DNA of 64,000 bases from the NCBI GenBank assembly GCA_964019425.1, contig OZ025793.1:434001-498000 (forward strand), written 5' to 3'. A program made the position numbers and the translations under genes. Origin of the DNA: Flectonema sp. DT1601. Its lineage: Eukaryota. The number at the start of each line of letters is the position of its first letter. The first letter of the stretch is position 1. Shown here in pieces: positions 53,593 to 56,976 of this stretch. The notes under the pieces were generated by a model. The model saw only the letters and a list, made by a program, of their open reading frames with translations, was not told the origin of the DNA and did no database searches.

Positions 53593-55491
53593 ATATATTA
53601 AATAGAGTAGTGGGCCTAAGATTGATCCTTGAGGCACTCCTTTTGACAGCGTACGAAACTTACTGAAATGTCCATTTGCATCAACTCTGACCTTCCTATT
53701 GGTTAGAAAGTCCGTTATCCATCGAACGATGAAGGTTGGGATGCCCATTCTTTGTAGTTTTGAAAGTAAAATTCGATGGTTAATCCTATCGAAGGCTGCT
53801 GTGAAATCGAATGACAAGAAGACTGACCTCCTCCCCTTCGTGTGGTTGTTTACCATGGCGTCCACCAGAATTGTGATTTGTTCGCAGGTATTTCTGCCCC
53901 GTCTGAAGCCAGCTTGAATCGGACTGAGTGCTGAGTTTTCGGTAAGCCAATGCATGAGCCTGTCGTACACCAACCTCTCAGCCAGTTTGCCAACAACCGA
54001 AGTGAGTGTGATTGGTCTGTAGCTTTTAATATCGTTCCGCGGTTTGCCCGACTTGAACATCGGTTTGATTAACCCCTGTTTCCAAAGATATGGAACATTG
54101 GAGGATCTCCACGAAGAATTGATCACCTTTAATAAACAGTCAACTGCCTTCTGAGATAAGTTCTTAAGCATTTCGTTGTGAATACCGTCAGGGCCTGCTG
54201 CTTTGCGAGGCTTCAGGTTTTTAATTGCTGCTGATATCTCGGTATCTGTGAAGTCACAACAGATGTCCAATTCCAAGTCTTCTTTCTTCAATGAAGGGGC
54301 TTCGAGTTTAGCAGCATCCCCATCGGCCACAAAGAGGTCCAGAAATGCTGCAGGTAAATCGTTCTCAGATATATTTGATACGCTGATGTCCTTACCAGCG
54401 TCCTGTTGGAGTTCTTTAATCTTCTTGAAGGCGAAGTTAAAGTTGTTCCCCTTCTTCAGTTGGTCTTTCAGGTGACAGCCTTTAGATTTTAGAGATTCCG
54501 GTGAAGAGGTCTTCCACTTACGTCGGCGCTTGCCCTTAAATAAGATTCTCCTCCGCACGTTCCTCGCAGCTACTTCATGTATTATGTTATTTAATAATCC
54601 AACATTACCAGTGGCATCATCCGAGAACTTAGCCCTATCAATTCTTCTATCAAGTTGCTGTCTGAAAGCACTCCAGTTTGTAGATTTGAAATCCCAGACA
54701 GTTCGTTTCCTTGCTCCAACTGTTGCTTGAGAGAGGTGAGCCATTGTGTCGAAGATAGCGAGTAGAGGTCGATGATCCGAGTTATGTTTACTGTCTTCAT
54801 TTATGATTGAAAATTCTTCTAATACAATTGATCCTTTGAAGAATATAACGTCAGGTGAGGTACCACCGCCAGGAATGTCGTGTTTGGGCCGAGTAATTTG
54901 ACCAGGTCTGTTTGCTACGAGAACGTCATTGCGATCCGCCCAATTAAATAATTCTTTACCAGATTTGGTTGTCCTGGTAGACCAGACGAGGTTGTGTGCG
55001 TTAAAGTCGCCCGCAATAATAGACTTCGTTGTGATCGGAAGATCATCTTCTCTAATGATACACCCAGGGGGAGCGTAAACGTTAATAACATTGACACCAC
55101 CAACATTCAGCATCATAGCTTCGATACTGCTTGTTCTCGAAAATAATTCTTCATCACTGATTCCTTGTGAGAAGCATCTCTTTGCCATTATTATAATGCC
55201 ACCACCTTTTGTATTTCTGTCCTTCCTATATGTATAATAGCCAGGGTGCGAAATGTGTTCCTTCGACCAGGTTTCTTGTAAGCACAGTACATCCGGCGAG
55301 TAGTGAGATAGGAGTCTTTGAATATAAGACCCCTTCTGACTTATCGATCTACAGTTCCAGCTCAACACTGAGAGTAACGAATTTTCAGGTCCAGGGTTGC
55401 GTTCAACGTCGCCTGCCAGCAGTAATAAACTTCGGGTCAGTTCTTTTTCAGTTTGAGAGACAGTCGGTGCTGTTACAGTGGTCGGCATCAC
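53593..55491 (-). CDS. ORF2 5' part: 2A peptide, APE endonuclease, RT N-terminal motifs
   Basis: SWNCRS, LCLQET, NVYAPP, AGDFNAH, SDHRP; KAAGPDGI, YRPITLTS, QAGFR, DFTAAFD, GVPQGSILGPLL. Confidence 0.95.
55387..55449 (-). other. 2A (StopGo) ribosomal skipping peptide
   Basis: EKELTRSLLLLAGDVERNPG|P matches the D(V/I)ExNPG|P consensus with the upstream Leu-rich helix. Confidence 0.92.
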
Positions 55492-55554
55492 CAGAACTTT
55501 ACTTTGATGTGACTCATTTTTAGACTTTGAAGGTAACGGTGTTCGTTTGTCAAG

Positions 55555-56976
55555 TCAGTTTGAGTCCATTTCAACATCAGCCGTTTCAGTAGTATCGGTT
55601 GGTTCTTCAGCACAGTGTCGCTTCAAATCACCAGATATAACTGGACCCTTGCCCGGGTTGAAGGTCGGCCCCAATTTGACCGGCTTTTCTTTTTTAGTTT
55701 CCTTGTTGATTACAAGGTACGCATCTTTGCCCATGTCGACGAAGCTTGATGATGGAACCGATTCAGAGATTGCAATTAACGTTTTGTTGCCACCCTTATG
55801 AAAACTAGCCACAATTGTGTGACTCCACTTGTATGCGTGCAACAGGTGATCGCTGATCTGTTGCGTCGTGAACTTCTTAATAGCCAGTGATTTAATTATA
55901 AAACGCTGACCAGTCGGCAGTGCGGGTTTCAGAGAATCCCCGAGTGATTCTCTCACTTTTTGAGTAAACCCGGGTTGAACTTTCAGCCCAAAGCACTCTC
56001 GGAACTTCGTGATGTAGAAGCTACCTTTGATTGCTGAAAGAACTGAAAGTTTGCCCAGCACCGCTTTGAAGCCCAAGTCCTTAACGAACTGAACTGTGTT
56101 CCAAGAGTCTTGGCCATTAGACCAAGATGGGTTTCTGATGAATAGATCTCTCTTCTCACTGGAGGTGTCGCTGTTGTTGTATTCCAGAATTTCAGAGATT
56201 CTGAAGCTTGGCACACGTATCGCCATAGATGTGTGCATATCGCATTTTTTAAATCCGAAGGGCGATGTCTTCAGCTCCCACTTTTTAATTAATTCTTTCA
56301 CCTTAGTGGTGAGAGTGCTCTCTGCTGATTTACTCCAGTCTTGTACGAATAGAACTGGGTCTGGCTGTGGTGGCTCGATGGTGTCTTCTCTTGCGGCAGT
56401 GAAATCTTTGCCACAAATCGGGGTGACAAATACCCTACGAATGACGCAGGTTCCGCACTTCTTTACGACTGGAAGTGCGACTGGGACTGTTGTTTTAAAC
56501 AGTTTAGATTTAGAGATGGCAGCCCAGTCGCCCTTCGTTCGTGTTTGCTTCAGTGCTTCATAATCAGCCTTTGAGCTGATGAGCACGAGTCCGTCCGAGT
56601 TGTTTTTGGAGGCATCGATTGCTTCTGAGAATTTAAGCGTAGGTGTTGCTTTAGCCCACGCTGCGTGAATGTACCACTCTGGCAGAGTGGGTTTCTTGTT
56701 GTTGGTAGTTGGTGTCGGGCCTCCATCATTTCCATCCCTCACCGTGCTCGCCGCTTCCTGTCGTTGTCCCCCGGACTCCTTCCCCTTCCTCTCTTGCTCT
56801 GTCGTCTTTCTCTTTGACGACTCTCCTTGTTTCACGCCGGAGTCCTCCGTCAGCTGCTCCAGCACTCTCATCGTGAGAGTCAAAACCCTCCTTCTCTTTT
56901 CTTCTCCTGCTAGCCCTTTCTCCACTTCTTGTACTAGCCGCATCACATCCAAAAGCAGCTCCTTACAACTGCTCAT
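55555..56976 (-). CDS. Retroelement ORF1 (473 aa; N-terminal coiled coil, no recognised domain)
   Basis: Long ORF between the 5' repeat and ORF2; ATG preceded by TTTTCTGACAG. Confidence 0.85.
   Translation of the reverse strand: MSSCKELLLDVMRLVQEVEKGLAGEEKRRRVLTLTMRVLEQLTEDSGVKQGESSKRKTTEQERKGKESGGQRQEAASTVRDGNDGGPTPTTNNKKPTLPEWYIHAAWAKATPTLKFSEAIDASKNNSDGLVLISSKADYEALKQTRTKGDWAAISKSKLFKTTVPVALPVVKKCGTCVIRRVFVTPICGKDFTAAREDTIEPPQPDPVLFVQDWSKSAESTLTTKVKELIKKWELKTSPFGFKKCDMHTSMAIRVPSFRISEILEYNNSDTSSEKRDLFIRNPSWSNGQDSWNTVQFVKDLGFKAVLGKLSVLSAIKGSFYITKFRECFGLKVQPGFTQKVRESLGDSLKPALPTGQRFIIKSLAIKKFTTQQISDHLLHAYKWSHTIVASFHKGGNKTLIAISESVPSSSFVDMGKDAYLVINKETKKEKPVKLGPTFNPGKGPVISGDLKRHCAEEPTDTTETADVEMDSN

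Follow-up and report, generated by a model that had tools for sequence, protein, structure and literature searches.

A conserved asparagine codon before the ORF1 stop, and a 2A-like peptide before the endonuclease, suggest that a LINE from a probable diplonemid may recode this stop

The element of interest is a two-ORF LINE (an APE-type non-LTR retrotransposon with APE, RT and RNase H domains) that lies within the window, the whole 64,000-nucleotide stretch of DNA that was analysed. Gene calls from related copies indicate that three features of its ORF1-ORF2 junction, here newly recognized as conserved, recur among relatives: (i) an asparagine codon immediately before the ORF1 stop, (ii) an ORF2 that often has no start codon ahead of the APE domain, and (iii) a 2A-like peptide. 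We propose that some ribosomes cross a leaky Asn-stop, which this copy would achieve by readthrough and other copies by shifting to +1, and that StopGo at the 2A peptide then frees the ORF2 protein (ORF2p). The probability of this reading may be put at about 0.48; roughly half of it falls to readthrough in this family, and half to a +1 shift that would be the more widespread or the ancestral route. This figure, like the weights given in words to the alternatives below, is a judgement and not a computed value.

The features on which the argument draws are as follows (positions in the window).

55555..56976, reverse strand: ORF1, 473 aa, from ATG 56976 to TGA 55557-55555.
55555..55560, reverse strand: the Asn codon and UGA stop of ORF1 (AAC-UGA), then CUU; the proposed leaky stop (from the sequence, the sister stop positions and the terminal Asn of close lineages).
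55489..55554, reverse strand: 66-nt linker, A-rich, open in both frame 0 and frame +1, without a stable fold or polypyrimidine tract.
55486..55491, reverse strand: GTG-ATG (Val-Met); the ATG is particular to this subtype, one sister having Val-Lys.
55448..55457, reverse strand: second copy of the 10-mer whose end is the ORF1 stop, overlapping the first 2A codons (Thr-Glu) in +1 geometry.
55387..55452, reverse strand: 2A-like peptide, 22 codons, ending in GDVERNPG/P (motif definition in PMC3708506).
53593..55386, reverse strand: 5' part of ORF2, with the APE endonuclease and the first part of the RT (Pfam PF03372, PF14529 and PF00078).
52018..53592, no strand assigned: non-autonomous TIR element inside the RT, carrying an LSU rRNA fragment at 52548-52854.
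49995..52013, reverse strand: 3' part of ORF2, with the remaining RT, RNase H (PF00075) and a C-terminal Cys/His motif.
57041..57079, reverse strand: 3' end of a euglenozoan spliced leader (SL), in three overlapping partial copies at the 5' end of the element.
57134..57428, reverse strand: upstream copy of a repeat of ~298 nt, with an A-rich tract at its end; 96.6% identical to the 3' copy.
49520..49817, reverse strand: 3' copy of the repeat and likely 3' terminus of the element; a tRNA-Ala(TGC) follows 12 nt downstream, at 49507-49436.

The TIR element (1,575 nt, with arms of about 198 nt that are 94% complementary and a 4-bp ATAT duplication) interrupts the RT, and this copy is therefore unable to make a whole ORF2p. 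With the insertion removed, ORF2 comprises 1304 aa, the portion after the 2A peptide 1271 aa, and the frame that reads through the ORF1 stop 1800 codons; the latter two values, recomputed here, agree with those of the earlier note. An Rfam search with the 3' repeat matched only the tRNA. ORF1 has no match in Pfam or the Atlas. Its structure model (pLDDT 71) combines a helical hairpin at the N terminus with several alpha/beta domains, and weakly resembles tandem RRMs; the best RRM match, Prp24, is not significant (E 3.3e-3).

The host is probably a diplonemid, since all named sequences closely related to either ORF belong to the diplonemid Flectonema neradi, the host genes on the window are unidirectional, and the element carries an SL 3' end (euglenozoan SL sequences are tabulated for comparison in PMC3795323). 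UGA is a real stop in this host because it terminates 5 of the 21 long ORFs in the window, including that of an SLC12 gene whose Pfam match extends to model position 417 of 418. Reassignment of UGA to sense was rejected, since long host ORFs, the complete SLC12 among them, end in TGA.

The ORF1 stop lies in the context AAC TGA CTT GAC. From this UGA onwards, frame 0 runs through 22 codons, Met (55488), the 2A motif GDVERNPGP (final Pro at 55389-55387), the APE and the RT with no stop between them, which bears out the earlier observation that the same frame is stop-free into the 2A peptide and APE; the linker, previously given as 21 codons, holds 22 between the UGA and ATG 55488. Taken by itself, the fact that the two ORFs are in frame exceeds chance by only a modest margin, because the linker is stop-free in 0.20 of 10,000 shuffles (about 0.07 when combined with a 1-in-3 chance of the frame) and C follows 18% of the 131 TGA triplets in the element. 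Frame +1 is likewise open across the linker, closing at TGA 55490-55488, which overlaps ATG 55488; both frames are open together in 3.3% of 20,000 linker shuffles. The 10-mer at the ORF1 stop recurs 107 nt on, these being its only two copies in the window (both strands), and the second is possibly what remains of a former junction. The idea that the entire junction was duplicated in tandem was rejected as not significant, being matched in 140 of 2000 shuffles.

All frame evidence from outside the window was read from gene calls in ENA, and the sister evidence comes from the best 15 of 18 cluster members for ORF1 and the best 15 of 37 for ORF2. The sister calls of family A are 97-99% identical to the window element and those of families B, C and D are more distant; all four families likely stem from the same genome as the window. 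A scan of metagenome, viral and prokaryote contigs yielded no true relative: L001, a giant-virus-like contig, gave a weak chance match (L003 is the same match) and was discarded. All 15 listed ORF1 calls of family A (the best 15 of 18) stop at the same place, 12 of them with one extra Asn and three as in the window. The UGA is thus not a private mutation of this copy. In family B, 21 of the 28 listed ORF1 calls share one end, and the remaining seven break earlier.

The residue before the stop also recurs. ORF1 ends in Asn in all six close lineages (family A, family B, the two Flectonema families and two other representatives), which are 34-47% identical to the window ORF1 and have unalignable tails that differ in length and sequence. 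Asn makes up 4.2% of tail residues, so that six terminal Asn in six lineages would have P about 1e-7 if the lineages were independent, a figure that overstates the case because they are related. The codon itself, AAC, is read directly in the window and is forced in the sister P0113; the other lineages contribute at the protein level. The two most distant ORF1 relatives end not in Asn, but in Gln and Ser. It could also be that the ORF1 protein itself needs the terminal Asn.

Whether ORF2 has a start codon of its own differs among copies. In the window an in-frame AUG lies 66 nt downstream of the ORF1 stop, at 55488, where the earlier note would have ORF2 begin if the linker proved broken in most copies; as a general rule this start does not hold. 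At that site P0113 has Val-Lys where the window has Val-Met, and five of the six complete family-A ORF2 calls (10 contigs) start with Met-Lys-Pro-Thr-Thr, which fits GUG, while the sixth starts as in the window. Since the gene caller writes GTG and TTG starts as Met (such starts were used in 4 of the 21 other calls mapped on the window), and since P0113 reads Val-Lys, most family-A copies probably carry GUG-AAG at the ORF2 start. In family A no further Met comes before residue 102, which lies beyond the APE motifs at residues 44 and 72. Among calls that keep the 5' part, 6/9 in family B and 9/9 in family C begin inside the APE (9 of 15 listed rows were counted in each family, internal fragments being dropped). 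A start codon just ahead of the 2A peptide is found in the window copy, in family B2 and in two Flectonema calls; in one Flectonema call, and likewise in family D, a Met coincides with the beginning of the APE.

Two sister junctions could be read across, and both are +1. P0113 follows the window's +1 frame over the ORF1 end and linker and frame 0 from the Val onwards, and just one codon path, which closes with an Asn codon and UGA, reconciles its first residues with the end of the sister ORF1. In P0072, of family D, the +1 reading passes through a presumed Glu-Met-Glu-Gln-Asp-Asn-stop and enters the 2A peptide without a Met; a purine follows the inferred UGA, and the shifted reading is allowed in 461 of 5000 shuffles. 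Both are degenerate copies with other frameshifts, and private indels could explain both +1 joins. For P0113, gene-caller behaviour suggests exactly this: its +1 frame contains three upstream ATGs that are never used as starts in the intact majority copies (5 calls, 10 contigs), all of which start at the Val codon, which leaves frame 0 possible for the majority. Slippage into -1 was rejected, since ORF2 is not in the -1 frame in any readable junction.

Known recoding sites provide further points of comparison. In the window copy, an in-frame downstream ORF with no second stop fits UGA readthrough of the alphavirus type. The stop context is UGA-CUU and not the readthrough consensus UGA-CUA/CGG (PMC3159437); only the C at +4 fits, and C stands in place of A at -1. 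Five folds of this one copy revealed no 3' stem-loop after the UGA (z -1.0 to +2.0 against shuffles). A conserved P-site codon before the stop, here Asn in 6/6 close lineages, is shared with +1 shifty stops, of which a conserved codon preceding a UGA in the A site is a known mark (PMC5009743). The 2A peptide has the form GD(V/I)ExNPGP with an upstream leucine-rich tract, as defined in PMC3708506. It is kept in families A, B (B2) and D (decayed), and occurs in a variant form in a Flectonema neradi family. The peptide may be active in skipping, for which the motif alone is not sufficient. Taken against the earlier proposal of UGA-CU readthrough followed by StopGo, the more general part, recoding at the stop and then StopGo, gains from the terminal Asn and from an ORF2 mostly without AUG before the 2A peptide or APE; readthrough as such loses by the CUU context, the missing 3' structure and the +1 state of the readable sister junctions.

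According to the proposed mechanism, the conserved Asn-stop would be a slow, leaky termination site, past which a minority of ribosomes would continue into ORF2 with no need of an AUG. Crossing would proceed by readthrough where ORF2 lies in frame 0, as in this copy, and by a +1 shift where it lies in +1, as in the two degenerate relatives. The 2A peptide would then release a free ORF2p whose first residue is the Pro just before the APE, thereby taking the role of the retroviral Gag-Pol protease and making the start of ORF2p independent of the entry route. The fixed stop, the terminal Asn (6/6), the often start-less ORF2, the kept 2A peptide and the +1 crossings of P0113 and P0072 argue for this mechanism; the CUU, the C at -1, the missing 3' fold, the Gln and Ser ends of distant relatives, and the start codon before the 2A peptide in the window copy, family B2 and two Flectonema calls speak against it. 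In addition, tRNA-Asn re-pairs poorly in +1, which counts against a +1 shift. The prior is low, because a literature search, which most subscription papers fell outside, turned up neither readthrough nor frameshifting for a LINE ORF2. It listed nothing on these diplonemid elements either. LINE terms were unmatched in four of the seven supplementary files of PMC10161547.

Termination-reinitiation, as in mammalian L1 and SART1, is the chief alternative and almost as good an explanation, though possible rather than probable. Having completed ORF1, ribosomes would remain on the RNA and start again close by, in whatever frame and at whatever codon, AUG and GUG included, and the 2A peptide would trim the variable leader; in this copy ATG 55488 would be used, perhaps by way of a short +1-frame ORF (from ATG 55517) whose UGA overlaps 55488. 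The in-frame state would then be chance, and the terminal Asn a matter of slow recycling or of protein need. Reinitiation is the established default for two-ORF LINEs, and translation of L1 ORF2, on the far side of a 63-nt spacer, needs no AUG (PMC5972666, PMC11485995, PMC5009743). It would sit well with relatives that vary in linker length, frame and start position, with the A-rich, unstructured nature of the 66-nt linker, and with an in-frame openness whose chance probability is about 0.07. However, L1 and SART1 retain an AUG, while several families here seem to be without one before the APE; reinitiation by itself does not predict Asn before the stop in 6/6 lineages; and the ORF1 stop has no stop-start overlap of its own.

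Two other explanations bear on the number of messages and of ORFs. ORF2 might be translated from its own mRNA, which SL trans-splicing would release from the shared precursor at an AG within the linker or close to it, in the manner of ordinary euglenozoan genes. Diplonemid mRNAs do arise by SL trans-splicing of polycistronic units (PMC10161547), and SL sequence is present at the 5' end of the element; nevertheless, we consider this route improbable, for no polypyrimidine tract precedes ORF2 (13/20 at best, versus 15-20/20 upstream of host starts at 7 positions in 5 genes), and most family-A copies seem to lack an AUG before residue 102. Moreover, the two-ORF RNA itself was presumably the copied template, because the SL sits 5' of ORF1. 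The other explanation, raised in the earlier note, is that the active element is a single ORF split by the 2A peptide only, the UGA being a mutation of this copy. There is precedent in the ORF1-2A-ORF2 fusions reported in a pseudoscorpion (PMC13405545), but the common stop of all 15 listed sister ORF1 calls refutes it for the UGA, no ORF1-ORF2 fusion occurs among 20 matches of 620-1976 aa or 11 profile matches of any length, and the sole fusion of an ORF1 tail with APE is P0072, a degenerate, frameshifted copy. We regard a single active ORF as very improbable indeed.

The leaky Asn-stop followed by StopGo has partial counterparts in several known systems. A 2A peptide in the ORF2 of a two-ORF LINE has already been reported, as has the ORF1-2A-ORF2 fusion. 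The L1Tc/Ingi elements of trypanosomes are likewise euglenozoan APE-RT-RNase H LINEs with a 2A peptide directly before the APE, as the earlier note stated (PMC3708506); elements of the Ingi clade, however, have a single ORF and no ORF1, whereas the window element has a 473-aa ORF1 with a fixed stop. The two-ORF CR1 elements CR1-26_BF, CR1-53_BF and CR1-1_LG share the order ORF1, stop, and ORF2 with an N-terminal 2A peptide; the available text of their descriptions speaks neither of recoding where ORF1 stops nor of a conserved final codon or an ORF2 without AUG. Mammalian L1 and silkworm SART1 share a bicistronic LINE RNA whose spacer is short (63 nt in L1 and 66 nt in the window element), and they make ORF2 at a lower level, its translation being AUG-independent in L1; they differ in having no 2A peptide, in using termination-reinitiation rather than recoding and, for SART1, in a UAAUG that overlaps the ORF1 stop and has no equivalent in the window element.

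Among systems of stop-codon recoding, alphaviruses and MuLV (PMC3159437) share a leaky stop between an abundant upstream protein and the polymerase, with UGA followed by C. They differ in their CUA/CGG context and 3' structure, both missing here, and in the use of a protease where StopGo is proposed for the window element. The +1 shifty stops of antizyme and Euplotes (PMC5009743) share the conserved codon before a slow stop, but the P-site codon here is Asn and the window copy is in frame 0. Cardioviruses also place two recoding events, StopGo and a frameshift, close together; there, StopGo comes first and the shift is -1 (PMC5009743).

It has long been an open question how ribosomes get to the second ORF of a bicistronic LINE RNA, and so far the route has been described as unusual reinitiation. 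A conserved last codon, an ORF2 that is often AUG-less and a 2A peptide together provide mutable signals that separate reinitiation from recoding. Tentatively, and at somewhat less than even odds, we suggest that a whole diplonemid LINE clade may make its enzyme in a Gag-Pol-like manner without a protease or an AUG: the conserved AAC-UGA would let ribosomes into ORF2 by either of two routes, a +1 shift and readthrough, which would be interchangeable from one subfamily to another, and ORF2p would be freed by a 2A peptide of ~22 codons. If true, this would be the first case of a LINE that recodes a stop codon, and shifty stops would gain a new P-site codon. It would offer a short natural cassette for a fixed ratio of two proteins, and it would explain why a 2A peptide is kept in a LINE that still has its ORF1.

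Four features mark the ends and the interior of the LINE:

57134-57428 and 49520-49817: two copies of a ~298-nt repeat, one on either side of the LINE, 96.6% identical to each other
57041-57079 (-): spliced-leader (SL) 3' end in three partial, overlapping copies, at the 5' end of the LINE
52018-53592: non-autonomous TIR element, with GAG...CTC termini and an ATAT duplication
49436-49520: end of the LINE and tRNA-Ala(TGC), the LINE stopping 12 nt upstream of the tRNA gene

The flanking repeat is probably not a target duplication, because its two copies have diverged from each other more than the LINE ORFs have from their nearest sisters. 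The repeat is also found upstream of copies of the more distant family B (gene calls P0094 and P0108), and may possibly be explained by stacked insertions or by a SINE-like partner.

The TIR element, which interrupts the RT of ORF2 and may be Sola-like, bears a 307-nt LSU rRNA fragment. ORF1 (55558-56976, minus strand) belongs to a family that has no assignment, a profile search of 1.8 billion representatives giving 11 matches; its structure model predicts several alpha/beta domains, weakly RRM-like in character.

Elsewhere in the window, about six genes for papain-family cysteine proteases follow one another in tandem at 1.6-kb spacing (7217-16159, plus strand); the Pfam scan covered two of them. 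A repetitive stretch (39503-43150) has two long plus-strand open frames that overlap each other (1215 and 1076 codons), and antisense frames there reach 677 codons in length. Two similar-looking 238-codon ORFs stand in tandem at 61818-62534 and 63119-63835 (plus strand), neither with a Pfam match.

The SL motif recurs, in the same place, translated within P0094. Its presence at both 5' ends suggests that the copied template of the LINE is an SL-capped RNA. In gene call P0139, from another locus, the translation runs through the end of the ~298-nt repeat and on into tRNA-like sequence. Insertion of the LINE may be directed to tRNA genes, a behaviour reported for Dictyostelium TRE5-A.
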